From contig CAZKZR010000001.1 in assembly GCA_964557245.1 (NCBI GenBank), forward strand, positions 1-27,093: a stretch of DNA of 27,093 nucleotides, read 5' to 3'. The notes beneath the pieces were generated by a model. The model was given only the letters and a program-made list of their open reading frames with translations, was not told the origin of the DNA and ran no database searches. The stretch is from an uncultured Anaerolineaceae bacterium (GTDB lineage: Bacteria; Chloroflexota; Dehalococcoidia; Tepidiformales; Tepidiformaceae). Both the position numbers and the translations under genes were made by a program. Below, in pieces: positions 3,301 to 27,093 of this stretch (position 1 is its first letter; each line of letters opens with the position of its first letter).

Positions 3301-3861
3301 GTGCATCATCGTTCGCGCACGTTCGTTCTTGGCGCCGTGCTGGCCATCACTCCCGTCCTTGGCGGCGCCTGCGGCGGCAGCAGCCTGGAAAAGGTAGACG
3401 CCGACGACTGGGTAGCTGACGTATGCGATGCCGCCCTCGACTTTCAGGACGACTTTCTCGACGCCGCCGGCGGCCTGGACGTCATCGAAGATGGCGATCC
3501 GGACGAAATCAAGGATGCCGTCGACGAGTGGGTTGATGATGGCTCGGACGCGATCGATGCCTTCGTGAAGGACGTCGAGGATGTCGGCCAGCCGGACATC
3601 GACGGCGGCGCGGACGTCATCAAGGCCTTCCGCGCCCACGCCAAGAAGCAGAAGGAGATACTCGCGGACTTCAAGAAGGACGTGAACAAGCTCGATGACG
3701 ACGATGACGAGGACTTCCGCGACGGCGTCTTCGACATCCTCGACGACGTAGAAGACCCGGACTTCCGCGAGGAACTCGAAGACATCGATGAGAACGACGT
3801 GGACGACCTCATCGACCAGATCGACGAAGAACCCGACTGCGCGAGCGTCCTCTTCAATTGA
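3301..3861 (+). CDS. Acidic lipoprotein, paralog A
   Basis: Signal peptide with lipobox GGAC-GG; motifs KVDADDWVADVC, GQPDIDGG and C-terminal PDC; extremely Asp-rich. Confidence 0.88.
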   Translation: MHHRSRTFVLGAVLAITPVLGGACGGSSLEKVDADDWVADVCDAALDFQDDFLDAAGGLDVIEDGDPDEIKDAVDEWVDDGSDAIDAFVKDVEDVGQPDIDGGADVIKAFRAHAKKQKEILADFKKDVNKLDDDDDEDFRDGVFDILDDVEDPDFREELEDIDENDVDDLIDQIDEEPDCASVLFN

Positions 3862-4424
3862 CGCGCTTCCGCCGGGCCGCGCTACGAGGCGGGTCCGGCG
3901 TGTTGCTCTTCTTCGCCCTGGTCTCGCCGTCGTGCGGCGGCGGCGCGAAGAAATCTGACGCCGATGACTGGGTCGCTGATATCTGTGCCCCGGCCATCAC
4001 CTTGAGCGAAGCTCGCGGCGACGCGCTGCTCGATTTCTTCGCGGTCGATTCTTCGGATGGCCCGGCCATGACGGAGGGCTTCAACCGCTACAGCTCTCGC
4101 TATGGGAAAGGCCTCTCCGATTTCGAAAAAGCCGTCGATGCCTCCGGGCAGCCCGATGTGCTGGACGGCGCGAAAGTCCGCAAAGCGCTGCTTGCATGGG
4201 TCGAAGCCGAGCAAAAGGCGAACGACCGCGCCCATGACGAGGTCGCCGCGTTGAAGAAGGACAGCGAGTTCCTGGCCAGCGACGTCGACGATATCTTCTT
4301 CGACATAGACTTCGCCGATTTCCGTAAAATCCTCGCAGACAGTGGCGCGCGCAGTTCCGCCGATATCATCGCCCTGATCGAGAAGGACCCCCAGTGTGCA
4401 TTCGCTCTCTTCGCCGAAGACTGA
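3858..4424 (+). CDS. Lipoprotein, paralog B
   Basis: TTG start overlaps the stop of A (TTGA). Lipobox-like SPSC-GG; motifs KSDADDWVADIC, GQPDVLDG and PQC. Confidence 0.85.
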   Translation: MTRFRRAALRGGSGVLLFFALVSPSCGGGAKKSDADDWVADICAPAITLSEARGDALLDFFAVDSSDGPAMTEGFNRYSSRYGKGLSDFEKAVDASGQPDVLDGAKVRKALLAWVEAEQKANDRAHDEVAALKKDSEFLASDVDDIFFDIDFADFRKILADSGARSSADIIALIEKDPQCAFALFAED

Positions 4425-4960
4425 AGCCTCGCCGGACCGCGCTTCTCGCGCTGCCGCTGGTGGTGCTGGCGGGCGCCGCATCCTGTGGCGGCAGCGATAC
4501 GGAAAAGGTGGATGCCGACGACTGGGTGGATGACGTTTGCGACGCCACCAGCACCCTCGCCGACGCCGAGGATGACGCCTACAACGCCTATTTCGACATC
4601 GAGAGCGACGATGCCGATGAGATTCGCGACGCCCTTTCGGACTATGTGGATGATTACGCGAAGGCCCTGGACAAGTTCGCGCGCGCCGTGGAACGGGCCG
4701 GCGAACCTGATGTGGACCACGGCGACCGCATGGTCAAAGCCGTGCAGGGCTGGGTGGAGGAGGAGAAGAAGTACGGCGTCCGCGCCGAGCGCGACGCTCG
4801 GAGCCTGAAAACCGTCGATGAGATCGACCAGGTGTTCAGCGATATGAAACTTGCGAACCTTCTCGACTTCCTGGACGACACCGATTCGCGCGATACAAAC
4901 GACATCGTCGAGTTGTTCGACGATAACGAACGCTGCTCCAGCTTCCTGTTCGTCGACTGA
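4394..4960 (+). CDS. Acidic lipoprotein, paralog C (start GTG 4394 or CTG 4421)
   Basis: Lipobox AASC-GG; motifs KVDADDWVDDVC, GEPDVDHG and ERC. Confidence 0.85.
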   Translation: MCIRSLRRRLKPRRTALLALPLVVLAGAASCGGSDTEKVDADDWVDDVCDATSTLADAEDDAYNAYFDIESDDADEIRDALSDYVDDYAKALDKFARAVERAGEPDVDHGDRMVKAVQGWVEEEKKYGVRAERDARSLKTVDEIDQVFSDMKLANLLDFLDDTDSRDTNDIVELFDDNERCSSFLFVD

Positions 4961-5063
4961 GCCGAAAGCAGGGTTTGCAACACTGCGCTGTCCGTGAACC
5001 ACCGTACTGTCGTAGTAGGTGGAGGAACCGCAGAATTGCCAAAACCTCCAGGAGTGCCATCGA

Positions 5064-6197
5064 ATGCACCTGAACTCCTTCGCCCGCGCCGGGCTCCTCG
5101 CCGCCTTGCCGCTTTCGTCCCTGCTCTTTGCCTGTGGTGGCGGCGGCAGCGACAAGAAAGTCGATGCCGACGATTGGGTTGCTGACCTCTGCGATGCAGC
5201 CGCCGACTTCGATAAGGCGAGCGACAAGGCCGGGGAAGCCTTCCTGGATGCTGACTTCGATGACACCAAGGAGGCCAAGGCGGCCTTCAAGGAGAGCCTC
5301 GAAAAGCAGAAGGACGCCCAGAAGGACTTCCGGTCCGACTTCGACAAGATCGGCCAGCCCGACATCGAAGATGGCGACAAGGTGGTCGCCGCTTTCAAGG
5401 ACCAGTTCAAAGCGAACGACAAGATGACCGAGGATGTCGGCAAGGCCGTCGCCAAGATCGATGACGACGACGATTTCACCGAGGAATTCCTCAAGATCGC
5501 GGACGACTTCGATACGCCGGACTTCCGCGAAAAGATGGACGACCTCGCCGACGACAGCGATGACGTGGCGGACCTCATCGATAGCATCGATGCCGACAGC
5601 GATTGCTCCGCCGTCATCTTCGACCAGCCGGGCGCCGACGACACCACCGACGAACCGACCGCTCAGCCTTCCAAGACGACCGTCGCCAGCAAGACCACCG
5701 TCCCGACGACGACCGCGGCCAAGACCACGAACGAGAAGTGGGTTGCAGGCGTCTGCACCTCGCTCGGCGGCTGGATCAAGGACCTCGAAAACGCCAACGA
5801 CAAGCTCGATTCCACGCTCACCACAGCCAAGGACGCGCCCGCGCTCAAGGCGGCACTCGTGGAGTTCATGAAAAGTGGCCAGGCCGAGACGAAGAACATG
5901 CAGAAGGAAGTAGCGGCCTTGAAGGCCCCTGACGTGAAGAACGGCGCGGCGATCCAGCGCACGTTCAACGATGGGATGAGCCAGCTGGTCGCCGTGTTCG
6001 ATGGCCTGGTAACGGAATCCCAGAAGGTCGGCACCTCCTCGCTCGCGCAGACCACCGCGGATGTCGAGCGGCTTTCCAGCGGCATCAGCGACGCGTTCAA
6101 CGATGTCAGCGCCACCTTCGACAAACTCGACGACCTGGACACCGGCGAACTGGACAACCTGTTCGATCAGCGCCCGGAGTGCGCCGGGATCAACTAA
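5064..6197 (+). CDS. Two-domain lipoprotein, paralog D (two family domains joined by a Thr-rich linker)
   Basis: AGGAG lies 9 nt before ATG 5064. Lipobox LFAC-GG. Domain 1: KVDADDWVADLC..GQPDIEDG..SDC. Linker: KTTVASKTTVPTTTAAKTT. Domain 2: WVAGVC..APDVKNG..PEC. Confidence 0.9.
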   Translation: MHLNSFARAGLLAALPLSSLLFACGGGGSDKKVDADDWVADLCDAAADFDKASDKAGEAFLDADFDDTKEAKAAFKESLEKQKDAQKDFRSDFDKIGQPDIEDGDKVVAAFKDQFKANDKMTEDVGKAVAKIDDDDDFTEEFLKIADDFDTPDFREKMDDLADDSDDVADLIDSIDADSDCSAVIFDQPGADDTTDEPTAQPSKTTVASKTTVPTTTAAKTTNEKWVAGVCTSLGGWIKDLENANDKLDSTLTTAKDAPALKAALVEFMKSGQAETKNMQKEVAALKAPDVKNGAAIQRTFNDGMSQLVAVFDGLVTESQKVGTSSLAQTTADVERLSSGISDAFNDVSATFDKLDDLDTGELDNLFDQRPECAGIN

Positions 6198-6220
6198 CGC
6201 TGCCCCCGAACCACGCTTGC

Positions 6221-6246
6221 TGGCGCGGATGCTAGACTCCGCGCCA
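6221..6246 (+). promoter_or_regulatory. Perfect 9-bp inverted repeat enclosing an extended -10 upstream of phaC
   Basis: TGGCGCGGA-tgctagac-TCCGCGCCA; TG-C-TAGACT occupies 6230-6238. Confidence 0.5.
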
Positions 6247-6267
6247 CTAGCGATGGGAGGCTCCCCG

Positions 6268-7314
6268 ATGACGCAGGCGCCGGGACTCGAAACGGAAGCT
6301 GAACTCCTCCGCATGGCCCAGGGCCTGCGCGATGCGCTGGGCGCGCCCGCGCCGGTAGCGCTCTCCCGCCGCGTCATCGCCGGATTCCGCGGCAAGGCCC
6401 GCATGTATTACTACCCGCCGAAAGACGGCGGCCGGTTCAAGACGCCGCTCCTGCTCTTCCCCTACCTGGGCATCAGCAGGCCGTACATCTTCGACCTCCG
6501 TCCCGGTGAATCGTTCGCGGAGTTCCTCTATGAAGAGGGGATCCCGTTCTACCTCGTGGACTGGGGCATTTTCGGGCCCGAAGACCGCGAAATGGGCATG
6601 GATGACGTCATCGGAGACATGGTGCCTTCGCTGGTGCGGCAGGCCGTCGCCCACTCCGGCGCCGACGCGGTCACGCTCTTCGGCTATTGCATGGGCGTCC
6701 CCATGACCAGCTCCGCGCTCGCCTCCCAGCCGGACCTGCCGGTGAAGAACTATCTTTCCATGGTCGGTCCGATCGACTTTTCCGTCGGCGAATTTCCAAT
6801 GATGACGACCGAGGACCGCTTCGACGTGGATTCCATCGTTGAAACGTTCGACATGATGCCGGCGGAGTTCGTGCGATCCGGGTTCAAGATGCTGAACCCC
6901 ATGGGCGATATTTCTCAGGCGCAGTCGCTCCTCCAGAACGCGGCGAACCCGCAGTGGCTCATCGGCTACAAGGCGATGAACCGCTGGGCAAGCGAGTGGC
7001 TCCCCCTGCCGAAGCAGTTCTTCCGCCAGTGGGTCCGCCACTTCTACCAGGGGAATGAGCTGGTGCAGGGGAAGTTCCGCGTGCTCGGTGAAGCCGTGAA
7101 CCTGCGCGATATCACCGTCCCCGTGCTCTGCGTCGGCGCCAGCAAGGACGATATCGTCCCGGCGGACAGTGCCCGCGCCCTGGTCGAATCGGTCGGGAGT
7201 AAGGACAAGCAGTTTGTCGAACTCGAAGGCGGCCACATCTCGGTGATTGCGGGCCGCCGCGCGAAACAGGTGGTGTGGCCGGCGTTGTTGGAGTGGCTGC
7301 GAGAGCACGACTAG
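6268..7314 (+). CDS. phaC: Polyhydroxyalkanoate synthase catalytic subunit, class III/IV-like
   Basis: GGAGG lies 7 nt before ATG 6268; 348 aa. Motifs TPLLLFPYLGISRPYIFDL, LVDWG, lipase-like box GYCMG (Cys), KDDIVP (Asp) and GGHIS (His). Confidence 0.85.
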   Translation: MTQAPGLETEAELLRMAQGLRDALGAPAPVALSRRVIAGFRGKARMYYYPPKDGGRFKTPLLLFPYLGISRPYIFDLRPGESFAEFLYEEGIPFYLVDWGIFGPEDREMGMDDVIGDMVPSLVRQAVAHSGADAVTLFGYCMGVPMTSSALASQPDLPVKNYLSMVGPIDFSVGEFPMMTTEDRFDVDSIVETFDMMPAEFVRSGFKMLNPMGDISQAQSLLQNAANPQWLIGYKAMNRWASEWLPLPKQFFRQWVRHFYQGNELVQGKFRVLGEAVNLRDITVPVLCVGASKDDIVPADSARALVESVGSKDKQFVELEGGHISVIAGRRAKQVVWPALLEWLREHD

Positions 7315-9256: not shown

Positions 9257-11599
9257 CTACGGCACGATGACGCGGCCGCGGACCATGTCCCGGAGTGTCT
9301 CGCTCAACTGGTCATAGGCCACGATCAGCCGCTCATCGATGTCCGTGCCGCTTGTGTAGACGGCGAAGCCGATCTGCCCCGCCGGTTCGTATTCCATGAC
9401 GCCCGAGCGCCCGTAGTGGCCCCAGCGCTCGCCGTAGATACGCCCTTCTTCCCGCCAGCACGGGCAGAACGGATAGGTGCCCAACCCGGCGTACTGGAAC
9501 TCGGGACCGAGGAAGTCGGTCATCGCATCGCGCGTCGCTTCCGAGAGCAAACGGTCCGTTCCGTAGAGGGCGAGCGCCCAGGCCGCGATGTCGCCAACAG
9601 TGGAATAGATACCTGCTGACGACCAGAGCAGGCCGTGGTACTCGAACGCCGCGGTCGCCGGGCCAGTACTCGATGACGAGCGGAGAATGCCCGAACTGGA
9701 ACGCAGCGCGGCGTTGCTCTGGGGATGCGTCGAAGCCGCGGTCGGCGCGATCTCTTCGTCCATTTTGGTCCCGGTAAGTCCGAGCGGGTCCAGCAACCGT
9801 TCGTGGAGCGCGGTGGTATACGGCGTTCCTGTGACCTTCTCGATGACCAGCCCGAGCATGTAGTACCCCGGACTGGAGTAAAGAAACCCTGTACCCGGTT
9901 CGAAAGCCAGGGGAGTCCGCGACGCGGCCAGCAGCGCGTCGGCCGGCGCGATCCCGTCGGTCGCCATCAGCCCCGAACGATGTTGGATAAGCTCCCGGAC
10001 GGTGTAGTCCCCGTCGTGAGCGATCCATGGCACGTAGTTCGAAACTCGCGCGTCCAGGTCCACCTTGCCTTCTTCCACCAGCTGGAGAACGAGGGCGACC
10101 GTGAACGTCTTGGTGACGCTGGCCGTCGGGTAGACGTAATTCGACGGCAACGGCTGTCCGGTCTGGACGTTGTTTCCGGACGCTGCCTGCCACGTCGAAC
10201 CGTTCCCCATGGCGATGGCGACGGCGGTGCCATCGAGTCCGTTGCTCAAACGCCAGGCATCGAGCGCCGCCTGCAGTTCCCCGGCGCTGACCGTTGCGGG
10301 TTCGTTGGGCGCGGGCAAAACATCGGGCGAAGGCGGTTCCTCCAGGACCACCGCACTCGCCGCACGGAGCGCGATCCCGACTCCCGACGGCGGGACCGCC
10401 CGGTGCTCGGCTCGCAGGTCTCCCGTGGGCCGCAGTTCGCTCACAAGGAACGCCGCGAGCAGCGTGAAAACGCCCATCGCGGCCACGGCCGGCACCGCGA
10501 ACCGCCTCAGCACCGACTGGTCCGTAGAGATTCGCTGTGGGCCCGCCCGGGGAGTGATGTGAAGTTCCCGCCGCGCCGCGAAATCTTCTACCCATCCGAA
10601 CGCCAGCATGCAGACGAAGGTCACGGCCAGGACGATCGGGAAGGCCGCGACATCCCGCAGCCATGCGGGGTGCGGGTCGGCCCAGAGGAGTTCGTACATC
10701 ACGAAGAGGCCAGCCGCGTGCCACAGGTAGATCGTGAAGATGCGGTCGTTCACCCAGGCGACGAACCGCGCCGGACCGGGCTGCGTGGCGAGCCGGCGCA
10801 GCGGCGCTTCGAACGTCAGCGCGATGCCCAGCCAGGTAAGACCGACCAGCAAGTGGGCGGGATACGAAGCGTTGACCACCATCCCCGGCACGTCCTGGGT
10901 CGCAATCCAGGCGGTAGCCCCGATCGCGAAGACGAGCGTTCCGGCCGCCCGCACTCGCGTCCCGATCCTGCCAACCAGACCGGCGTTGTACGCGAAACCG
11001 AGCAACCAGAAGATCGAGAACGTCGCCGCATCTTCAAACTGCCACGGCACGGGGTGGCCGGCCCGGGCGCGCATTTCGAAGACAATCGCAAAGCCCAGGG
11101 GGATGCCGATCACGGCGACGGACAGGCGCCGGAACAGCCAGAGCAGCAGCGGGCTGAGGAGGATGAGCCAGGTCAGGCAGCGCAGGTACCAGAGCACCGC
11201 CCAGAAGGTGACTCCCCAGCCGGAACCCTGGGGATCCCAGATGGGGAAGATCCACCACGGCAGCTGGTCCCAGCGCATCGGCTGCCCCAGTTCCACCTTC
11301 ACCTGCGAGTGCAGCGCCATGCCCGGGACAACGACCAGGGCAAAGGCCCACAGCGGTATGAGCAGCCTTCGGAAGCGGGCTATCAACACGTGCCGCCAGG
11401 AGGCTCGTTCCAGGGAGTGGGCCATCAGCGAGCCGGCGACGAAGAACATCGCCGGCATGGAGGCGACCAGGTAAGAGAGCCACGCGAAGCCGAACGTGTG
11501 CCAGGCCAGCACCCGGATGATTGCGACCGCGCGAATCAGGTCCAGGAACTGGTTGTGCGGCTTGTTCTGTGCCGGACCTTCGGCCGTAGCGTGTTGCAT
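9257..11599 (-). CDS. Acyltransferase-3 (OafA-like, polytopic) fused to a beta-lactamase/class C-type serine hydrolase
   Basis: N-terminal FLDLIRAVAI..H, MPAMFFVAG, RFRRLLIP, LWYL and FTIYLWH with about 10 hydrophobic segments. C-terminal SxxK (ASVTK), LIQHRSG, FEPGTGFLYSS and GHYG. Confidence 0.88.
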   Translation of the reverse strand: MQHATAEGPAQNKPHNQFLDLIRAVAIIRVLAWHTFGFAWLSYLVASMPAMFFVAGSLMAHSLERASWRHVLIARFRRLLIPLWAFALVVVPGMALHSQVKVELGQPMRWDQLPWWIFPIWDPQGSGWGVTFWAVLWYLRCLTWLILLSPLLLWLFRRLSVAVIGIPLGFAIVFEMRARAGHPVPWQFEDAATFSIFWLLGFAYNAGLVGRIGTRVRAAGTLVFAIGATAWIATQDVPGMVVNASYPAHLLVGLTWLGIALTFEAPLRRLATQPGPARFVAWVNDRIFTIYLWHAAGLFVMYELLWADPHPAWLRDVAAFPIVLAVTFVCMLAFGWVEDFAARRELHITPRAGPQRISTDQSVLRRFAVPAVAAMGVFTLLAAFLVSELRPTGDLRAEHRAVPPSGVGIALRAASAVVLEEPPSPDVLPAPNEPATVSAGELQAALDAWRLSNGLDGTAVAIAMGNGSTWQAASGNNVQTGQPLPSNYVYPTASVTKTFTVALVLQLVEEGKVDLDARVSNYVPWIAHDGDYTVRELIQHRSGLMATDGIAPADALLAASRTPLAFEPGTGFLYSSPGYYMLGLVIEKVTGTPYTTALHERLLDPLGLTGTKMDEEIAPTAASTHPQSNAALRSSSGILRSSSSTGPATAAFEYHGLLWSSAGIYSTVGDIAAWALALYGTDRLLSEATRDAMTDFLGPEFQYAGLGTYPFCPCWREEGRIYGERWGHYGRSGVMEYEPAGQIGFAVYTSGTDIDERLIVAYDQLSETLRDMVRGRVIVP

Positions 11600-16945: not shown

Positions 16946-19774
16946 TCAGGCGGCCTTCTGCAATTGCCTCGGCGCGAGCTCGATCACCTGCGCCGGGGCC
17001 TTGTGGGATTCGCGGTACCGCTGCGCGAACCCGCCGACGAAGAACGCGAGTGCCATCAGTTCGGCGCCCTCTTCGATGACGGTGATCGTCCACGCGTGCG
17101 ACGCGAATCCGTCGATTGCGACCGTCAGTACCGCGAACGGCGCCGCGCCGAGGAAGTACAGGATGGCCTTCGGGTGTTCGAACACCTGCTTCCAGAGCAG
17201 CGCCGAGATAGCCATGCCGGTCAGCCCGTAGACCGCGACGATGAAGTCGCTCGGGCGGTGGAACCCGAACGGGTGGTCGAACGGAGTCGTCGCCGAAATC
17301 AGGCCGCCGAGCTTGCCGTGAATATCCGGCGTGGCATCGAACGCGAGAATCGCGAACGCCAGGCCCCAGGCGCCCCAGAGGTCGCGGTAGATGGCCCGTC
17401 CGCCGTCCTTCCGCCAGGCGGAGATGCCCATCGTGCCCGCCACCAGCATCATTGCCGACGACAGGAAGGTGACGGGCCCGAAGTCCCGGAACAGGTCCGG
17501 TTCGGCGCTGCGGGGGTCGATGGCCGCGGAACCGGCCAGCGCGGTGGCGGCGAACACTCCCGTGAATACGACGAGCGCAGGGGTGAGGTACCGCGTGCGG
17601 GCCAGGCGGCCGGCAAACGCCTCGAGGGCCCTCGCGGCCGGGACAATCCCTTTGCTCGCGGTCTCCGAGCGGCCAGCGGCTTCGCGAACCCGCAGCACGG
17701 AGGCGCCGGCCAGGAACACCCCCGCCGCGAGCGCAGCCGCGGATGCTCCACTGACGGCGGCCGCTTCCAGCCCGAAGGCGGCGCCGGCGGCGATCGTCGC
17801 GACGGCAAGGACGGGCGATGACGCTCGCGAAGCCAGGAATTCGTGGCGGAACATCCAGGCGGTTGCGGCCGCGGTCAGCGCGTAGGCGGCGGCCGCCAGC
17901 ATCGTCGTTTCACTCTCGCCGGGGACCATCGGGATGTTGGTGTCCTCGAACAGGCCCGCGATGTTCGCGCTGATGTTGAACGCAAGGTCGATGCCCGCGC
18001 CGAGAGCGCCAACGCCGGCGATCAGCCAGAGGAAGCTCCCGCCCTGGTCGGCCGCCGAGGCGGATTGCCCGGTCTTCCAGAAGGCGCGGAAGGCGAGCAG
18101 CGCCGCGAGACCCGAGACCGCCAGCGCGGCGTACGCCACCCGGTCCATTGCGGTGCCCGAAAGCGACCCGCCGGCGAGCACCGCCGTCCCGGCGATGGCT
18201 CCAACTGCCGCCACCGAGACCAGCCCGGCCGCGTTCGGCTGGCGCAGCTTTGCTGAAGCGGCCGGGAGCGCCATCCAGCGGCTCAGCGCACCGAGGTGCA
18301 GCCGCTCATGCAGGCGGAACGGGATGTGGCGAAGGGCCTGGTCGAACAGGACCGCGCGCAGTGCCCGCTGCGATCGGAACGGCCGCGCCGCGAGGTAGGC
18401 AAAAGCGCCGAATCCCGGGATGGCGCCGAGGACGAACACCGGCGCAGAGTGCACCGCGCGAGCTTCGCGCCTGGCGTCCGCGTTGCGCAGTCCGGACCAT
18501 TCGCCCTTCAGCCGGGCGGCCAGCGTCCAGCCGCTGCGGGCGATGGAACCCAGCGGGAAGCGCAGGGGCACACTCATGGCCAGGTGGGCGCCGAGGCCAG
18601 CGGTCGCAGCGGTCATCTCGGGAGCGGCCAGCGAAGCGCGCGCTGCTTCGGCCTCGGCCGGTTGCAGCAGGCCTTCGTTGACCCAGTTGTCGATGCCGGC
18701 GGTCGCGATGTCCGTCGCCATCCGCTCGCCGCCCGAAGACAGCCGCTTCACTCCGCGGAACCAGCCCGGCACGTCGATGATTGCCGTGGCGATGCGCAGC
18801 GCTTTGCTCACGTAGCGCCGCTCGCTGGCGTGCCATGCGCGCTGAGCAATGCCGTAGTTGGCGGCGGAGATGCGCAGGCTGTTCGCGCTGGCGTCGCCGA
18901 GTTGTGCCTCAATCTGGGGCAGGTGTCGCTCGAGGTAGGCGTTCAGCCGGCCCACGTTGATCTCATCGAACGAGGGATAGAGCCCGGCCCGCAACGAGCG
19001 CCAGAGCACTCGCGGCCGCAGGAACGGGGACACCAGGTTCGATTCGAGGTCGATGATCCGGTACGCGCCGTCCGTGCGTTCGATGAGGTTGCCGATGGCG
19101 CGCGGGTTGTACGAAGCCACCTGCCACGGCGGCAGCCCGGCCTCTTCGAAGTGGCCCTGGAGCCGGTTCAGGAACGTCCGCGCGGTTTTCGTATCCCGCG
19201 GGAGCGTACCGCGAACTAACTCGGTGACCAGGCTGTAGCGCCCGTCGTCGCCGAGCGTGACATCCAGCACCGGTGAGACGTGGTTCTCGCCGAACCAGTA
19301 CTCGGTGAGCAATCCCGCGATCGCCCGCCGCTCAGTGGCCGCCGTGAATGCGGCTTCGTTGGTGGTGTAGGGGAAGGCGGACTGGAACGAGAGCGCGTAG
19401 AGCAGTTTCACGGGCCTGGTCGGCCGGTACACCTTCGTCGCCGTGCCCCTGTCGTAGTCCAGCACCACATCACTCGAAATCGAGCCGGTCAGCACGATCC
19501 CGGTCTCCGGCACTGATGTGGCCGGGGCAACGGCCTCAGCGGTGGCGGCGCCACGCCGGAAAGCGAGCACCAGCCCCGCGCCGCCGAACGCGACCGCAAG
19601 GCTCAGCGCGAACGCGGCCGCCCAGGCCGGCTGCGCGGCTTGTGTTGCCTCGAATAGCGCTGCGGCGGCGAAGAAGATGCCGACGGCGATCAGTGACCCG
19701 GCAGCGGCAAGTCGGCCGCTTCCGTGAGTGTCAGCCGTACCGAAGTCCTGGTGTGCAGGCGTCCAGGTGGACAT
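16946..19774 (-). CDS. 942-aa membrane protein: 2 TM, protein-kinase-like domain, multi-TM C-terminal region
   Basis: GGGGAG SD. Kinase-like elements ATKVYR, HVSPVLDV..SLVTELVRG, GNLI and RIIDLE, followed by many hydrophobic helices. Confidence 0.8.
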   Translation of the reverse strand: MSTWTPAHQDFGTADTHGSGRLAAAGSLIAVGIFFAAAALFEATQAAQPAWAAAFALSLAVAFGGAGLVLAFRRGAATAEAVAPATSVPETGIVLTGSISSDVVLDYDRGTATKVYRPTRPVKLLYALSFQSAFPYTTNEAAFTAATERRAIAGLLTEYWFGENHVSPVLDVTLGDDGRYSLVTELVRGTLPRDTKTARTFLNRLQGHFEEAGLPPWQVASYNPRAIGNLIERTDGAYRIIDLESNLVSPFLRPRVLWRSLRAGLYPSFDEINVGRLNAYLERHLPQIEAQLGDASANSLRISAANYGIAQRAWHASERRYVSKALRIATAIIDVPGWFRGVKRLSSGGERMATDIATAGIDNWVNEGLLQPAEAEAARASLAAPEMTAATAGLGAHLAMSVPLRFPLGSIARSGWTLAARLKGEWSGLRNADARREARAVHSAPVFVLGAIPGFGAFAYLAARPFRSQRALRAVLFDQALRHIPFRLHERLHLGALSRWMALPAASAKLRQPNAAGLVSVAAVGAIAGTAVLAGGSLSGTAMDRVAYAALAVSGLAALLAFRAFWKTGQSASAADQGGSFLWLIAGVGALGAGIDLAFNISANIAGLFEDTNIPMVPGESETTMLAAAAYALTAAATAWMFRHEFLASRASSPVLAVATIAAGAAFGLEAAAVSGASAAALAAGVFLAGASVLRVREAAGRSETASKGIVPAARALEAFAGRLARTRYLTPALVVFTGVFAATALAGSAAIDPRSAEPDLFRDFGPVTFLSSAMMLVAGTMGISAWRKDGGRAIYRDLWGAWGLAFAILAFDATPDIHGKLGGLISATTPFDHPFGFHRPSDFIVAVYGLTGMAISALLWKQVFEHPKAILYFLGAAPFAVLTVAIDGFASHAWTITVIEEGAELMALAFFVGGFAQRYRESHKAPAQVIELAPRQLQKAA

Positions 19775-19943: not shown

Positions 19944-20894
19944 TCAGGCCGGGAGCAACGCCCGCAGCCGCTCATCCAGCTCCTTCAGCGGCCGGCCCTT
20001 GCCGAAACGCTCGAGCACGGACCGCCTGCCCGACTGGTTCGTCTTCAGTTCACCTGCCCGGTGCTTTTCCAGCAGACCGGCGATCGCCGCTCGAACCTGT
20101 TCCAGCCCTTCGGCCTTGATGCACCCCGGCATGGCGAACGTCCAGATGACGTATCTGCCCCGCGAAAGCGCCTCAACCGCGATGAACGACTGGCCGTCGT
20201 GGCTCGTAAGCCGCACCACCACCGTGGTCTCGCGGTACAGCGCGTCCATGTCCTCTACCCAATCCCGGGCCTCCAGGTTGGACGGCAGCGGCTGGGGCAA
20301 CGTCCCGGCCGGGGACGGAATGAGCGTGAACGGCACCTCAGGAAACTCGCGTGGCAGCTGCAACAGCGTTTCGCCGTCGAATACCTCGCGGTCGTACGAA
20401 TCGACGGGGTAGTAGAGCAACACGCGGAATTCTTCGGGCAAAGGCGGCGCCGGAGGCACATGGATAGGAATCGGGAGCGAGACGTACTCGGAGATGACGC
20501 CAATTGTCCGCAGCTCTTCCACTAACCAGGGCGCGTCGCACCAGTGCGCCGGCCGTTCGGCCACGCGCAGTGACACGTTGTGCCGGCGGTGCTCGTCGAT
20601 GGCGATCTGCACGTCGGTGCCAACCCAGTGGATGACCGTGGGCTTCCTTCGCAACCGCAACAGGCGGTCCTGCGGTGACTTGCGGTCAATCCGGCTGCCG
20701 ATCAGGTAGACGATGTCGGCGCGCGCGGCGGCCGCCGCCACTTTCGCCCAGCCGCCGGCGCTCCTTCCAGGGTGGGGAAGGTATTCCGCCTTCCAGCCCA
20801 GGTCTCCCAGGTCCCTGGCCAGCAGCTTCCCGAAATAGGGCAGCCCCAGGATCAGGATGCGGCCACGGCGCTCCCCGTCGCCCCCAGGGTTCAT
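19944..20894 (-). CDS. Putative glycosyltransferase (GT-B, GT4-like, divergent)
   Basis: Motifs RILILG, HWVGTD, SHDGQSFIAVEALSRGRYVI (GT4 S..E.....EA..G.PVI-like); start overlaps the acyltransferase stop. Confidence 0.7.
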   Translation of the reverse strand: MNPGGDGERRGRILILGLPYFGKLLARDLGDLGWKAEYLPHPGRSAGGWAKVAAAAARADIVYLIGSRIDRKSPQDRLLRLRRKPTVIHWVGTDVQIAIDEHRRHNVSLRVAERPAHWCDAPWLVEELRTIGVISEYVSLPIPIHVPPAPPLPEEFRVLLYYPVDSYDREVFDGETLLQLPREFPEVPFTLIPSPAGTLPQPLPSNLEARDWVEDMDALYRETTVVVRLTSHDGQSFIAVEALSRGRYVIWTFAMPGCIKAEGLEQVRAAIAGLLEKHRAGELKTNQSGRRSVLERFGKGRPLKELDERLRALLPA

Positions 20895-21635: not shown

Positions 21636-22076
21636 ATGAAGCGAGCGTTACTCTTCGCCTTTGGCGCGGCCGCCCTGCTCTCCGCAGCGGCTCCTGCCCT
21701 GGTTTCGGCCCAGAATTTCCCGCCGCCGCCCCCAACCACCTTCTACGGCAAGGTCCCTTCGGGCATCGGCCCCGGCGATACCGTTATCGCGATCGTCACC
21801 GACGGCACGTCGTCGCAGGTCTGCGGTGACGGCGCCACCGCGAACGACACCAGCGGTGTTGTCTACGTGGTGGATGTGGTTGCCAATGCGCAGACCGCGG
21901 GCTGCGGCCAGACCGGCCGAAACGTCCAGTTCTACTTCGTCGGCGCCAAGCGCCTGGCGACGGACACGGCCGCATGGGCCGGCCCAGGCCCGAAGGAGCA
22001 GAACTTGACAGGTCTCGGTCAGCCGCTTACGCCCAAGAACCGCGCCCCGCAAGTCGCGAAGGACGGCGTCAACTAG
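21636..22076 (+). CDS. Secreted beta-rich protein, paralog 1
   Basis: Signal peptide MKRALLFAFGAAALLSAAAPALVSA; motifs FYGKV, VIAIV, VCG, VYVVDV, AGCG; tail APQVAKDGVN. Confidence 0.85.
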   Translation: MKRALLFAFGAAALLSAAAPALVSAQNFPPPPPTTFYGKVPSGIGPGDTVIAIVTDGTSSQVCGDGATANDTSGVVYVVDVVANAQTAGCGQTGRNVQFYFVGAKRLATDTAAWAGPGPKEQNLTGLGQPLTPKNRAPQVAKDGVN

Positions 22077-22083
22077 GCTCCTC

Positions 22084-22602
22084 GTGAACCACTTTCGAAG
22101 CGAGCACGTCCCGCGGCCCGGGAACCGTTCCAGGTTCCTCGTGGCGGGAGTGCTCGCTTCGTCGTTCCTGGCGTTCGCGGCATTTGGCATAGCCCGGGCG
22201 GTCGACCCACCCCAGCCGGACTTCTTCTGGCCTTACGGCAAGGTCCAATCCGGGGGCCAGAACATCTCGCCGCCCGTCCAACGCGTCATCGCCATCGTCA
22301 ACGGCAAAGCCTGCGGCGAAGCCACGACGCTGGTCGCGCAGGCTGGCCCCGGGGTGCCTGCCGGCGATGTAGGCAAGACGGTCTACGTGGTAGACGTCTT
22401 CGCCGATGGCGCTGGCTCGGGACAGCGCGCCGGCTGCGGACGGCCGGGCGATGTGGTCTGGCTCTACTTCCCGGAATCCCACCAGTTCGCTGCCCAGCTC
22501 GCGAACTTCGCCCAGGGCAGTCTCCGCTTCGACGTGGACCTCGGGGATGAGCTGCCGTTCCGGCTGCAGGGACCGATGCTGGCGAACGACGGACTGAACT
22601 AA
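22084..22602 (+). CDS. Secreted beta-rich protein, paralog 2
   Basis: Signal peptide ending IARA; motifs PYGKV, VIAIV, ACG, VYVVDV, AGCG; tail GPMLANDGLN. Confidence 0.85.
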   Translation: MNHFRSEHVPRPGNRSRFLVAGVLASSFLAFAAFGIARAVDPPQPDFFWPYGKVQSGGQNISPPVQRVIAIVNGKACGEATTLVAQAGPGVPAGDVGKTVYVVDVFADGAGSGQRAGCGRPGDVVWLYFPESHQFAAQLANFAQGSLRFDVDLGDELPFRLQGPMLANDGLN

Positions 22603-22673
22603 GCGGGGGCGGACGCGATTCCTGCCTCTCGACAGATGTGCGCTCCCGGGCAGTGCGCGATACTGCGCGCGTC

Positions 22674-23420
22674 ATGAGGATTCTCCGTATTGGGACCAGC
22701 AACGACGACCAAACCCCCGTTCCAGAAGCTCAGCGCGGCTGGAAAATCGCCGAACAGATGCTCGCTGAGGCGACCGGAGAACCGGTGGAAACCGTCCTTC
22801 GGCGCGGCTGGCCGAATTCGAAGTTCGGAGACCGTCTCGAAGCCTGGATGGAAGAACTCCAGCCCGATTTCGTCGTCATCCAGGTCAACAACTACTGGTA
22901 CGGGCACGAATCGATTCCGCTTTGGCTGCACCGCCGGCTCGGCCGCGTGGGCGATTCGGTCGGCAGCGTCGGGGCGAAGGTCGGGAGATGGTCGTGGGTG
23001 GCCGACAATCGCGTGGCTCAGCTCGTGAACAGGCGCGCCCCGGATGTCCTGCCGTACGCAACCCATTTCTCCGTCGCGGAAGTGGCGTCTGGCATGGAGT
23101 CGGCTCTGCGCCGCGTGTTGACCCATGAGGGTGTGCTCCTCCTGGTTCGCGGCAACGAAGACTGGCATATCCCTACCGCCTCCGCGCGCTTCAACCGCCG
23201 CAACCGCGCTCGCAACGCCGCCATGTCAGCCGCGATGAGGGAGGTCTGCGAGCGTCTGCGTGTGCCGTACGCGCAGCGCCCTTCGAATCCGGAGGAAGTG
23301 CGAACTGTGAATAACGCTGGTTTCCATTCCGCGCCCGAAGAGCAACAGAATGCCGGAGCTTTCGATGGCGAGTCGATGATCGCGGCCTGGCGGAGCGTCC
23401 ACTCCCTCGCCCTGCCCTGA
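22674..23420 (+). CDS. SGNH/GDSL-like protein, paralog of 1250..2002
   Basis: MRILRIGTSND aligns with MKILRLTNSSD, fixing the start at ATG 22674. Shared ATGEPVET, WP, PD, YW..ES.PL, VRG and CER.R.P. Confidence 0.7.
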   Translation: MRILRIGTSNDDQTPVPEAQRGWKIAEQMLAEATGEPVETVLRRGWPNSKFGDRLEAWMEELQPDFVVIQVNNYWYGHESIPLWLHRRLGRVGDSVGSVGAKVGRWSWVADNRVAQLVNRRAPDVLPYATHFSVAEVASGMESALRRVLTHEGVLLLVRGNEDWHIPTASARFNRRNRARNAAMSAAMREVCERLRVPYAQRPSNPEEVRTVNNAGFHSAPEEQQNAGAFDGESMIAAWRSVHSLALP

Positions 23421-23421
23421 G

Positions 23422-24363
23422 CTAACGCCAGAGCACCGCGACCAGTTTCTCCAGTGCCTCTCCCGCCCGCGGCCCCGGCGCGCGGAGGAAGAGCGAGGTA
23501 TCGAGCACGGCGACGCGGTCCTGTTTGACGGCGGGCACTCCTGCCCAGGCTCGGTCGGCTTTGATCTGCGCATCAAGCCCGCCCTGCCCCGAAGGGAGGA
23601 TGAGCACGGCCTCCGGAGCGAGCGCGGCGGCGGCGCCGACATCAATGACCCCAAAACCCGGTATTGGCCCGCCATCCGCGACGGAACCAAGCACGTTGGT
23701 TGCTCCGAGGTATTCCAGCAGGCTCCCGATATAGGTCGCCGAGCCGCCCCCGAAGACGTCCCGTCCGCCTCCGGTCAACACCAGCACCCTGGGCGCGCCG
23801 CCGCGGGCCGCGGCCACACCGCGGGCGGCCTCCGTGCGCGCTTCGAGTTGATCTCGCGCGGCCGCTGCCTCCGGCCCATGGTCCGTCGCCTCTCCCATCG
23901 CCGTCAGGGCCGCCAGAACCTCGGAGAACGAGTTCGCCTTCAGCATGTAGACCGGGCGGCTGAAGCGGTCGAAATCCCGTGTCCGGCCGGCCTGGTAGGC
24001 CGCGTCAGCCAGCACAAGGTCCGGCGCGAGCGCCTCGATGGCGTTGAAGTCGGGAGAAATGGCAGAACCGACAAGCTTCGCCGCGGGCGCCACATCCGCC
24101 GGCGTGTCGGAGGTGCGGCCCAGTACCTCCAGACCGATGGCCACGGCGTAATCGGCCGCGGCCGGGCTCAAGGCCACAACGGTCCGCACTTCCTCGGGCA
24201 GCGAAACGCTCCGCCCCGTCATGTCTGTGACTTGCCGGCCCCCGTTGGTGCCGCTTGCGGTGACCGTGGCCGTCGGCGAAGGCCTTGGCGGAACGGCCGG
24301 CGCCGCTTTCCCGCAACCGGCGAAGACGCCGGCGAGCAGCGCCACCGCCAGCCACCGTTTCAC
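23422..24363 (-). CDS. ABC transporter substrate-binding lipoprotein (BtuF / iron-siderophore, helical-backbone type)
   Basis: Lipobox FAGC; motifs VTDMTGRSV, TVVALSP, PDFNAIEALAPDLVL, GATNV and RAPGPR. GTGA overlap with the cofC stop. Confidence 0.9.
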   Translation of the reverse strand: MKRWLAVALLAGVFAGCGKAAPAVPPRPSPTATVTASGTNGGRQVTDMTGRSVSLPEEVRTVVALSPAAADYAVAIGLEVLGRTSDTPADVAPAAKLVGSAISPDFNAIEALAPDLVLADAAYQAGRTRDFDRFSRPVYMLKANSFSEVLAALTAMGEATDHGPEAAAARDQLEARTEAARGVAAARGGAPRVLVLTGGGRDVFGGGSATYIGSLLEYLGATNVLGSVADGGPIPGFGVIDVGAAAALAPEAVLILPSGQGGLDAQIKADRAWAGVPAVKQDRVAVLDTSLFLRAPGPRAGEALEKLVAVLWR

Positions 24364-25013
24364 GCGCGTGCTGCGAGGCGCGCTTCAACGCCAATCGACT
24401 GCAGGTACCGGCCGGCTGCGCCCTGCCGCCCCCGGGGCGCCCTCAGCAACTCGACGATGTCATCGGCGGTATCAAGGTCCAGGCGCAGTTCACGGTTCGG
24501 ACAGACCGCGACGTGCATGCCGGCCTTGCGCGCCGCCGCTGTGTGGCGGGCGAATGACGCTGCCCCGTACGCGAGCGGGAAGCGTCCAGGCGGCTCGAGA
24601 ACCATCGCGTTCGTACCGCCGTCCCGGCTTTCCACCACGGCGATGGCGTTCGGACGCGACATCGAGAGCAGGTAGTCCACGGCTTCATTCGTCGCGAGCG
24701 GGAGGTCCGCATGGAGGATGAGCACCCGCTCCCGCCCGCTGCCTTCCGTCATGAGCGTCGCCAGAGCCGCTTCCAGTTGCCCGTTCAGGCCCTCGACGTC
24801 GGCGGATTCGGGCATCACGCGCGCCTTGCCCGCGGCGGCCGCTCGCACCCGCGGGTCGGCGGTCAGGACCACGGCCGCCGGACCAGCCGCGTGCAGCACC
24901 GATTCGAGCGTGATGATCGCCAGTGTTTCCCGCTCCTCCGGCGAAAGCAGGGGCGCCAGCCGGCCCTTCGCGCGGTCCAGCCGGTTCACCGGAATGAGCA
25001 CGGGAACGCTCAC
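24360..25013 (-). CDS. cofC: 2-phospho-L-lactate/phosphoenolpyruvate guanylyltransferase (F420 biosynthesis; FbiD)
   Basis: Motifs VLIPVN..AKGRL, HADLPL, DGGTNA, YGAASFARH and LDLDTADD; directly after cofD. Confidence 0.92.
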   Translation of the reverse strand: MSVPVLIPVNRLDRAKGRLAPLLSPEERETLAIITLESVLHAAGPAAVVLTADPRVRAAAAGKARVMPESADVEGLNGQLEAALATLMTEGSGRERVLILHADLPLATNEAVDYLLSMSRPNAIAVVESRDGGTNAMVLEPPGRFPLAYGAASFARHTAAARKAGMHVAVCPNRELRLDLDTADDIVELLRAPRGRQGAAGRYLQSIGVEARLAARA

Positions 25014-25942
25014 CTGGCGGTCTCCAGGAAGGCGAGGATGTCGCGAGCCAGTTCCGCTTTCCGTTCCATGCTGGTCATCATCGTGTCCGTCACGAGGCAG
25101 CGAAGTCCCAGCGCTTCTACTTCATTCGCCAGCGCCCGGTCCTGCTCGTCGATGACGAACACATCGATCAGGCCGCTGTAGATCTTCGCCACCCCCAGAG
25201 CGGAAACCTCGTAACCCATCGTGGTCATCATTTTCGCCGCGGGGCCTTTCACCACCTGCCCGGCGATGATCGGGCTCACGGCGACCCGGGTGGCCTTCGT
25301 TGTTGCAAGTGCCGAGCGCACGCCTTCAACGGCGAGGATCGGTCCGACGCTCACGAACGGGTTGCTCGGCGCGAGGAAGACCGTCTCAGCGTCGCGCAGC
25401 GCTTCGATGACACCTGGCGCCGGTTTCGCCGCCTCGATGCCGGCGAACCGGATCGATCGCACATCAACCTCCGTGCGCAGCCGGACCATGTACTCCTGGA
25501 AGGCGAGTTCTCCCTCGGGCCCGGTGATCATCGTCCGCACCGGCTCATTGGTCATGGGAATCACGGTGCAGCGGAGGTCCCAGGCCTTCGCCAGCCCGGC
25601 AACGATTTCGTGCATCGGCACACCCTGGTGGATGAGGCGAGTCCGGTGGATCGCCATCGCCAGGTCCTTGTCGCCCAGGTTGAACCAGCGTTCGTAGCCG
25701 AAGCGCTGGAGCTGATCCACCACGGCGAACGTATCGCTGGTGAGGCCCCATCCCGTCTCCGGGTTGATCGCGCCGGCCAGTGCGTAGAGCACGATGTCGG
25801 TGTCCGGCGAGACGTGCAGGCCGAACATCTCCACATCGTCGCCGGTGTTCGAGATCACGGTGACTTCGGAGGGATCAACTACCTGGCAGAGGCCCTGGAG
25901 GAAGCGAGAAGCGCCGACGCCGCCGGCGAGCACGGTGTACAC
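25010..25942 (-). CDS. cofD: 2-phospho-L-lactate transferase (F420 biosynthesis; FbiA)
   Basis: Motifs LAGGVGASRFLQG, NTGDD, SPDTD, WFNLGDKDLA, PSNPFVSVGPIL and SPII..KGPA. Confidence 0.95.
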   Translation of the reverse strand: MYTVLAGGVGASRFLQGLCQVVDPSEVTVISNTGDDVEMFGLHVSPDTDIVLYALAGAINPETGWGLTSDTFAVVDQLQRFGYERWFNLGDKDLAMAIHRTRLIHQGVPMHEIVAGLAKAWDLRCTVIPMTNEPVRTMITGPEGELAFQEYMVRLRTEVDVRSIRFAGIEAAKPAPGVIEALRDAETVFLAPSNPFVSVGPILAVEGVRSALATTKATRVAVSPIIAGQVVKGPAAKMMTTMGYEVSALGVAKIYSGLIDVFVIDEQDRALANEVEALGLRCLVTDTMMTSMERKAELARDILAFLETAR

Positions 25943-25948
25943 CCGGCG

Positions 25949-25954
25949 ATCGTA
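25949..25954 (-). promoter_or_regulatory. -10 box TACGAT, 6 nt before the cofD GTG (leaderless-type)
   Basis: The minus strand reads TACGAT-cgccgg-GTG, with no SD. Confidence 0.55.
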
Positions 25955-25978
25955 ACCGGCACGGGATGCTGCGTCGCG

Positions 25979-27093
25979 CTAGGTCGATTCCGGGCGTCTG
26001 ACGGTCCGCGCGCCTACTGGCACGCGGGGATCGGGCGCTCGCGCCGCGGTTGCCGCCGGCTCTTCCCGGCTTCGCCGGACCGGCTCACCGAGCGGTTCCA
26101 CCACCGGGTTGTGCCCGCGCGTGCCCGCTCCCAGTTCGATGGCGACGAGGATCGCGAACACCAGGTAGAGGAATGGTTCCTCCAGCAACCGGCCCTCGGA
26201 CTGAGACTGGAAGAGGATCTCGATGAGCGCGGCCGCGCACCACGCCGCCATTAATCGCGAATACCGGTCGTCATACAGCCGGTATGCCGAGCGGCAGGCG
26301 ACGATGACGCGCAGCGCGAACAGCGTGAGCATGCCGATGCCGACGATTCCCAGTTCAGCCAGGATGCTGATGAACGAGGTGTGCGAGAGCGTGGTCTTCG
26401 CCCACCAGGGGAGCGTCCAGAGGTAGCTGATGACCAGCGTGTGCTGGTAATTGCCCGAACCAACGCCGACGAGCGGGTTGTCCTTCCACATCTCCCAGCC
26501 GCCCTTGATCAAGAACTCTCGCTGGCCGATGAGCTGGATGCCCGAGGTGAGCGACTTCACCCGCTCGGCATTCGCGCCGCCCTGCATGAAGAGAAGCACC
26601 AGCAAGAACGCCAGCCCGCCGAATGCCACCGCGGTGAGGCGCAGCTTGGTGTACCTCCGGATCGGCGCCATGAGTACCACCAGGAACGAGGCGAGCAACA
26701 TGCCCAGCCAGCCCGACCGCGACGCCGTTGTGACGATGCCGACGGCGCAGATCGCCATCATCGGGGCCGCGATGTAGACCGTGAGCCGCCGGGGTCCGGT
26801 GACCATGATCAGCCCCGCGGAGAGCGCCATTGAAATCGCCAGGAACCGCGCAAGGTTGTTCGGGTCCGCGAAGAACGCGTTGGAGCGGTAGCTGTAGTCA
26901 TCCGATTGGATCAAGATCGCGCGCCACTGGAACACGCCGAGTACACGCTGGGCGATGGCGACGACGGAAAGCAGGGTTGCCGCGATGAGGAACGCGGCGA
27001 CTATTCGCTCCAGGTCCTTCCGGTCCTCGATCATCGAGGGTGCGGCGAACACGAAGGCCACGTACATCGGCATGATCAGCACGCCGTTGGTCG
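25979..27093 (-). CDS. O-antigen ligase / Wzy_C family membrane protein, 5'-truncated
   Basis: The frame is open to the window edge. Motifs F.DPNNLA, TASRSGWLG, MWKDNPLVGVGSGNY and SHTSFISILAELGIVG. Confidence 0.9.
   Translation of the reverse strand, partial: TNGVLIMPMYVAFVFAAPSMIEDRKDLERIVAAFLIAATLLSVVAIAQRVLGVFQWRAILIQSDDYSYRSNAFFADPNNLARFLAISMALSAGLIMVTGPRRLTVYIAAPMMAICAVGIVTTASRSGWLGMLLASFLVVLMAPIRRYTKLRLTAVAFGGLAFLLVLLFMQGGANAERVKSLTSGIQLIGQREFLIKGGWEMWKDNPLVGVGSGNYQHTLVISYLWTLPWWAKTTLSHTSFISILAELGIVGIGMLTLFALRVIVACRSAYRLYDDRYSRLMAAWCAAALIEILFQSQSEGRLLEEPFLYLVFAILVAIELGAGTRGHNPVVEPLGEPVRRSREEPAATAARAPDPRVPVGARTVRRPEST

Follow-up and report, generated by a model that had tools for sequence, protein, structure and literature searches.

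A class III-type binding lipoprotein encoded with cofD and cofC in Tepidiforma-type Dehalococcoidia lacks the two glutamates by which related proteins dock onto a permease

Positions 1 to 27,093 of contig CAZKZR010000001.1 (GenBank assembly GCA_964557245.1, from an uncultured Anaerolineaceae bacterium placed by GTDB in the family Tepidiformaceae of the Dehalococcoidia, phylum Chloroflexota) were analyzed, and this whole stretch is called the window below. On its minus strand the window encodes CofD and CofC, two enzymes of cofactor F420 synthesis, followed by a lipoprotein with the fold of a class III substrate-binding protein (SBP). The main new result is that the family to which this SBP belongs, which is consistently linked to cofD and cofC, has lost both of the glutamates by which such proteins dock onto the permease of an ATP-binding cassette (ABC) importer. 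The features of the locus, in the order in which they are read, are:

25979-27082, minus strand: Wzy_C/O-antigen-ligase-like membrane protein (open reading frame (ORF) call and profile match)
25972-25977, minus strand: putative weak -35-like hexamer, GCGACG (sequence reading)
25949-25954, minus strand: -10 box, TACGAT (sequence reading and comparison of loci)
25010-25942, minus strand: cofD/fbiA, 310 aa (TIGR01819 match)
24360-25013, minus strand: cofC/fbiD, 217 aa (TIGR03552 and PF01983 matches)
23422-24363, minus strand: Peripla_BP_2 (class III) lipoprotein SBP, 313 aa (PF01497 match)
24313-24363, minus strand: signal peptide of the SBP, lipobox FAGC (Cys17); a conserved proline-rich tether, PPRPSPTAT, comes after it (sequence reading)
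24043-24045, minus strand: codon of Asn107, at the column of BtuF Glu72 (N-lobe permease docking; alignment)
23635-23637, minus strand: codon of Gly243, at the column of BtuF Glu202 (C-lobe permease docking; alignment)

The three genes are closely joined. The TGA stop codon of cofD and the GTG start codon of cofC overlap in the four nucleotides GTGA at 25010-25013, and the stop codon of cofC and the GTG start codon of the SBP gene overlap in the same way at 24360-24363, both on the minus strand. The ORF that follows, at 22638-23420 on the plus strand, is convergent with the SBP gene, with the two stop codons 2 nt apart. No gene for a FecCD permease or an ABC ATPase is found anywhere in the 27-kb window, nor within 10 kb on either side in 33 related loci. 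The original prediction for this DNA, made from the sequence alone, had described the chain of GTGA overlaps, the convergent neighbor and the absence of transporter genes after the SBP, and all three were found as described.

Docking of class III binding proteins is through one glutamate per lobe (Glu72 and Glu202 in BtuF), each paired with an arginine of the permease, and mutagenesis in FecB, FhuD2 and FeuA has shown that docking cannot do without these salt bridges (PMC3741162). The alignment comprised 79 members of the cof-linked family, the 91 relatives nearest to it from outside the family, and BtuF of E. coli. At position 107, in the N lobe, the family has N, T, A or P (N107 in the window) and none of the 79 members has an acidic residue, while Glu is found in 82 of the 91 nearest relatives and in 106 of the 111 members of the P0100 family. 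At position 243, in the C lobe, the family has G, A, S or T (G243 in the window), again with no acidic residue in any of the 79, and Glu is found in 86 of the 91 nearest relatives and 110 of the 111 P0100 proteins. The glutamates of the BtuF sequence landed at 72 and 202 as expected. Judged from this alignment, both docking glutamates have been lost across the cof-linked family, against a retention of about 90-99% in its relatives.

The P0100 family is the closest outgroup, at ca. 217 bits against the family profile. An exhaustive profile search gave a few representatives (at 50% identity) above 300 bits and then nothing until these 217 bits, so the cof-linked SBP form a discrete family. The P0100 family includes a protein (P0466) from a metagenome-assembled genome (MAG) of Tepidiforma sp. 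(locus L123, JBBFMF010000028.1), where it is encoded in an SBP-FecCD-ABC_tran cassette, which shows that the Tepidiforma clade owns one type II importer. This cassette, at 3617-7256, is divergent from a Flavin_Reduct gene, an arrangement typical of iron-chelate uptake. A more distant homologue, P0091, also has both glutamates and is followed by a FecCD gene. The loss of the docking residues, the loss of the cassette and the gain of linkage to cof genes go together. Neither of the marks of a type II ABC importer of the BtuCD-F/FhuDBC kind – the docking glutamates and the FecCD plus ATPase cassette – is found with the SBP of the window. The original prediction had the SBP use a transporter encoded elsewhere. 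The Tepidiforma cassette shows that a FecCD/ATPase transporter exists elsewhere in a Tepidiforma genome, but the absence of both docking glutamates from the SBP family weakens this proposal and leaves it doubtful.

The linkage of the SBP gene to cofD and cofC is conserved. 87 close homologues of the SBP were found, with 46-98% identity and all of the Dehalococcoidia/Tepidiforma type, and a scan at one genome per species gave 32 related loci, including that of the complete Tepidiforma flava genome. The order Wzy-cofD-cofC-SBP is present in each of the 30 loci from Tepidiforma-type Dehalococcoidia that have enough upstream DNA, so the linkage is not peculiar to the genome in which it was first noticed. 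Of 29 distinct loci, 22 have the 4-nt overlap of cofC and the SBP gene; in the others the two genes are separated by a few nucleotides. No cofE, cofG, cofH, fbiB-C or FecCD gene lies within 10 kb on either side in the Tepidiforma-type loci, where the SBP gene occupies the slot of a partner gene. As a contrast set, 80 cofD loci of other lineages (44-56% identity) were examined: the neighbors of cofD included cofC in 38, cofE in 37, the fbiB C-domain in 21, cofG in 20 and cofH in 18, and none of the 80 has a Peripla_BP_2 or FecCD gene beside cofD. Another Dehalococcoidia MAG has the order cofG-cofH-cofD-cofC-LLM. The association of cofD, cofC and the SBP gene is beyond chance (30 of 30 related loci, 0 of 80 unrelated loci), and a functional tie of the SBP to F420-0 synthesis is plausible.

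The sequencing runs that contain the locus are all metagenomes. DNA nearly identical to the operon is present in metagenomes from bioreactors, activated sludge, biofilters, aquaculture and wetlands, and the Tepidiforma flava version in those from hot springs; the operon is spread across mesophilic engineered and thermal habitats. With the CofH of Thermomicrobium roseum as query, none of the best 120 of 8000 matches (at least 67% identity) was named Tepidiforma, and the two CofH gene contexts examined were both from other lineages. The papers on Tepidiforma and Chloroflexota that were consulted make no mention of F420 genes.

The 36-nt gap between the Wzy_C gene and cofD contains the hexamer TACGAT, a 6-nt spacer (CGCCGG) and then the GTG start codon of cofD (25940-25942), with no Shine-Dalgarno sequence before it. 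In 29 of the 30 related loci a TAnnnT hexamer precedes the cofD start by 6-7 nt, and the remainder of the spacer and intergenic region is not conserved. A -10 box at 6-7 nt from the start codon is the geometry expected of a leaderless mRNA. The -35-like hexamer GCGACG comes straight after the stop codon of the Wzy_C gene (25979-25981) and is separated from the -10 box by 17 nt; the closest relatives have it too, and other subclades have GTTCGC or TGACTG at the same distance. A generic scan for the sigma-70 consensus detected no promoter, missing TACGAT, which was recognized because the related loci were compared. The leaderless-type promoter proposed in the original prediction is supported by this comparison, and cofD, cofC and the SBP gene are predicted to form a transcription unit separate from that of Wzy. 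In two metatranscriptome runs, both of low depth, there were short contigs over cofD, cofC and the SBP gene (from 25816 downwards) and none over 25950-26217; this agrees weakly with the promoter call, at a depth too low for proof.

CofD transfers a phospho-lactyl or enolpyruvyl group from a GDP-activated donor onto the deazaflavin FO to give (dehydro-)F420-0, and CofC/FbiD is the guanylyltransferase that supplies the activated donor. The CofD of the window scores 338 bits against TIGR01819 (cutoff 257) and its CofC 148 bits against TIGR03552 (cutoff 105), with a further match of CofC to PF01983. CofD aligns end to end with M. mazei CofD (3C3D, 231 bits) and with M. smegmatis FbiA (200 bits), and its D35 and D47 correspond to D45 and D57, the metal ligands of FbiA (PMC7253369), both of which are kept. 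By these measures CofD and CofC are authentic F420 enzymes. A role for the pair as envelope enzymes was considered and ruled out on the same grounds: the equivalog cutoffs passed, the full-length alignment with 3C3D and 6UVX, and the retained catalytic Asp.

The SBP matches PF01497 (Peripla_BP_2) with 76.3 bits over residues 63-289, well above the gathering cutoff of 27.5. Its AlphaFold2 model, with a predicted local distance difference test score of 87.6, has two Rossmann-like lobes and a single long backbone helix (163-187). In Foldseek the template modeling (TM) scores were 0.75-0.84 to HtsA, Lmo2184, FecB, BhuT and IsdE; class III proteins overall were matched at E of 1e-14 to 1e-19, TM of 0.62-0.84 and 15-26% identity. 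The N-terminus reads MKRWLAVALLAGVFAGC, with a lipobox (...VFAGC) read by eye, on which the SBP is predicted to be a bacterial lipoprotein. Chloroflexota are generally held to be single-membraned, and the protein is therefore expected on the outside of the cytoplasmic membrane. The proline-rich tether (...PVPPRPSPTPT..., residues 18-32, 24270-24312) is unusually conserved for a linker, and may be a site of modification or interaction.

Among 22 aligned members of the family, 33 positions are invariant, and C17, G18, R27, P28 and T31 are conserved in at least 90%. The family-specific invariants are D86, D120, R127, D130, F134, R201, D202 and R294; all map to segments with ligand contacts in HtsA and IsdE, and R201 and D202 belong to the TGGGRD loop of the family. 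A 7-residue insertion (229-235) lies just before the apex helix of the C lobe. The placing of the family-specific invariants in cleft segments indicates one conserved ligand, and the ligand cleft is under selection where the docking surface is not. Two database members of the family, the 377-aa P0076 of Ca. Amarobacter glycogenicus and the 353-aa P0082, diverge fully from about residue 290 and run long in a frameshift-like manner; the related locus L011 reads through normally at this point, and the divergent C-termini are probably assembly errors rather than pseudogenes.

The SBP does not belong to any of the named families tried. The original prediction had called it BtuF-like and had pointed to the TIGR03868 type. 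The name was given correctly – the NCBIfam model is titled 'putative F420-0 ABC transporter substrate-binding protein' – but the SBP is not of this type. The SBP has no match to TIGR03868 at E ≤ 10 (the curated cutoff is 392.4), although the model is in the library and SBP outside the family reach 46-49 bits with it. The partners of the SBP gene, cofD and cofC, and the absence of cofE within 10 kb on either side also set it apart from this family. BtuF (NF002894) is ruled out at 27.5 bits against a cutoff of 234, IsdE (TIGR03659) at 72.3 bits against 298.65, and FhuD likewise on scores. The best named NCBIfam matches, to IsdE, a PGF-CTERM SBP, FecB and BtuF, are all far below cutoff. Haem binding of the IsdE type is ruled out as well: Met78 and His229 of IsdE align to Ile/Leu and Ser in the SBP. 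A distant homologue, P0090 (27% identity), is an orphan SBP without linkage to cof genes and is uninformative.

The reading that we favor, tentatively and at somewhat less than even chances, is that the SBP is a surface binder of a deazaflavin, FO, which feeds CofD and CofC without canonical ABC docking. FO is the best candidate for the ligand because it is the substrate of CofD. The lipoprotein would have kept the class III fold and a strictly conserved cleft, with docking onto a permease of the BtuCD/FecCD type gone, and would be made as one transcription and translation unit with CofD and CofC. At the cell surface it would bind the deazaflavin and raise the local concentration of FO, either to salvage it from the community or to recover FO that has leaked out. 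FO, which is uncharged, passes membranes without a dedicated importer, and inside the cell CofC and CofD would add the charged phospho-lactyl or enolpyruvyl group, trapping it as F420-0. FO leaks from its producers and is used by organisms unable to make it. E. coli and yeast, for which no FO importer is known, take FO up when it is supplied in the medium, and phosphorylation traps it inside them (PMC8859854); such entry and trapping suggest that a permease-free binder combined with trapping by CofC and CofD would be workable for acquisition or retention. We infer from this a possible mechanism of capture plus trapping. Its fullest form, a permease-independent capture system in which an SBP freed from its transporter traps membrane-permeant FO and CofC and CofD act as the 'pump', is doubtful. 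If it were true, biofilm and sludge communities would share FO as a public good, and the SBP would be the first identified FO-binding uptake factor.

Several points weigh against an FO binder that works without docking. Sequence and fold are silent on the ligand, and the structural neighbors bind staphyloferrin and other siderophores, haem, ferric citrate, catecholates or B12. Three conserved arginines would fit any anionic ligand. The SBP has no similarity to TIGR03868, which is the sole family earlier proposed for F420-0. The SBP may have co-evolved a non-canonical contact with a permease. The linkage is seen in one clade only, and so counts as one event in evolution. Downstream of the SBP the gene order varies between subclades. 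The glycosyltransferase (GT)-Wzy block upstream is as syntenic as the cof genes; the SBP gene lies at the edge of this syntenic block, and the conservation of its linkage may in part be inheritance.

The same block gives rise to another explanation, that the SBP is a scaffold in envelope biogenesis, an orphan recruited outside the cytoplasm, in the way of M. tuberculosis FecB, to a polytopic membrane glycosyl-ligase or transferase, in this case the adjacent Wzy_C protein or the GT block, its place after cofD and cofC being incidental. A Wzy_C gene is immediately upstream in all 24 loci that extend far enough, with conserved GT genes beyond, and the loss of the docking glutamates would suit a non-transport role. 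The operon structure argues the other way: Wzy appears to be a transcription unit of its own, with the promoter between it and cofD, and the SBP gene is translationally coupled to cofC and not to Wzy; CofC and CofD are authentic F420 enzymes. In addition, the family-specific invariants lie in segments of the ligand cleft and not in a surface patch. On balance such a scaffold is unlikely.

It is more improbable still that the SBP is an ordinary binder of an iron chelate, haem or a corrinoid that uses a remote FecCD/ATPase cassette, with a merely historical linkage to cofD and cofC. FhuD1 and FhuD2 of S. aureus share one permease in this way, the SBP is a member of PF01497 whose nearest named families are binders such as IsdE, FecB and BtuF (at scores far below cutoff), a complete cassette adjoins the flavin reductase gene in the Tepidiforma sp. 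MAG, and orphan SBP such as P0090 occur among the distant relatives. Against this, the two glutamates are missing from all 79 family members and kept in the cassette-linked paralogue and about 90-99% of the relatives. The family has no conserved His, Met or additional Tyr that could act as an axial ligand, the haem ligands of IsdE being replaced, and it has conserved both its translational coupling and its own promoter. That the SBP is a ligand sensor, or a remnant in slow decay, and takes no part in F420 metabolism or in transport is very improbable: the lack of a permease partner and the frameshift-like C-termini of P0076 and P0082 would fit, but the proteins are full-length and 45-98% identical in at least 30 genomes, with the 33 invariant positions and a confident AlphaFold2 fold, and there are no signaling genes adjacent.

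A linkage kept across a whole branch of the Chloroflexota points to an undescribed means of capturing or holding an F420 precursor. We know of no characterized factor for the uptake or binding of FO, nor of an FO-binding class III SBP. For the question of how bacteria acquire or retain FO the locus offers a clonable candidate with cultured hosts (Tepidiforma species). Whatever its members bind, the family is a clear example from nature of class III SBP that have lost both docking glutamates while remaining under strong purifying selection, and should be informative on the recruitment of binding proteins to non-transport roles, as with M. tuberculosis FecB. It also carries a warning for annotation – the automatic label for the family is 'iron complex transport system substrate-binding protein'.

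The convergent ORF at 22638-23420 on the plus strand (260 aa) has a weak match to GDSL lipases (23 bits, cutoff 32.9), a G+C content at third codon positions of 0.75 and no counterpart in the 32 related loci. In close relatives two genes for small secreted proteins come directly after the SBP gene, without a counterpart of this ORF, which looks like a lineage-specific insertion or possibly is not a gene. Beyond it, 21636-22076 and 22084-22602 (both plus strand) encode tandem paralogous small proteins (146 and 172 aa), each with a signal peptide, that share a PPPPP/PPQP motif and have no assigned family; they are kept downstream of the SBP gene in one subclade. Three large, coding-like ORFs at 16946-19774 (minus), 5019-6197 (plus) and 19944-20894 (minus), of 942, 392 and 316 aa, have no Pfam match at E ≤ 0.001. 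The 780-aa protein encoded at 9257-11599 (minus) is a fusion of an Acyl_transf_3 membrane acyltransferase with a C-terminal serine beta-lactamase/penicillin-binding-protein-like domain. Rfam and tRNA scans of the window gave no matches.

Compared with known systems, the SBP shares with BtuF, FhuD, IsdE and HtsA the two alpha/beta lobes on one rigid helix, but at 15-26% identity it is below every equivalog cutoff, and it has neither the haem ligands of IsdE nor the Glu-Arg docking pair. Its nearest relative outside the family, the P0100 paralogue (P0466 in L123), has the same fold and comes from the same phylum; it keeps the docking glutamates and its gene stands ahead of those for FecCD and ABC_tran, whereas the cof-linked SBP has neither and carries the 229-235 insertion. 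FecB of M. tuberculosis (Rv3044) is an orphan lipoprotein of the same fold (Foldseek 7uq0, 8ebg) with a role outside the classical ABC import cassette: in arabinan synthesis, where its partners are Rv3035 and AftB (PMC13041763). Unlike the SBP of the window, it has no linkage to cofactor genes.

Thermomicrobium roseum has an operon of cofD, cofC, a drug/metabolite transporter (DMT) gene and an fbiB C-domain nitroreductase gene on its megaplasmid (L036, NC_011961.1, 11935-15148). As in the window, a transport-type gene overlaps the stop codon of cofC, here by 4 nt, but it encodes an integral-membrane EamA/DMT carrier and not an SBP. cofG and cofH are on the same replicon, so the carrier there does not imply FO auxotrophy. 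On a plasmid of Miltoncostaea oceani (L037, 3385-6647) a DMT gene is directly before cofD-cofC-cofE, and in a third locus (L040) an EamA gene is ca. 4 kb downstream of cofC. There is no close homology between the DMT proteins of T. roseum and Miltoncostaea (E 0.04), and no similar DMT was found in the 80 metagenomic cofD loci. RibN-type riboflavin importers are DMT proteins. The cof-adjacent DMT/EamA proteins may be deazaflavin carriers or a coincidental association – a lead, not a rule.

The closest parallel in function is TIGR03868 of the Actinobacteria, likewise a Peripla_BP_2 family linked to the F420 pathway, with a function proposed from context. It is a hypothetical equivalog for which we know of no experimental test. 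The genes of TIGR03868 proteins form cassettes of three together with those for a permease and an ATPase; these are linked to cofE and occur where the genome has no cofC or cofD. The SBP of the window differs in each respect: it has no cassette, its partners are cofD and cofC, and its docking residues are lost. From these differences the logical ligand of the SBP would be FO and not F420-0.

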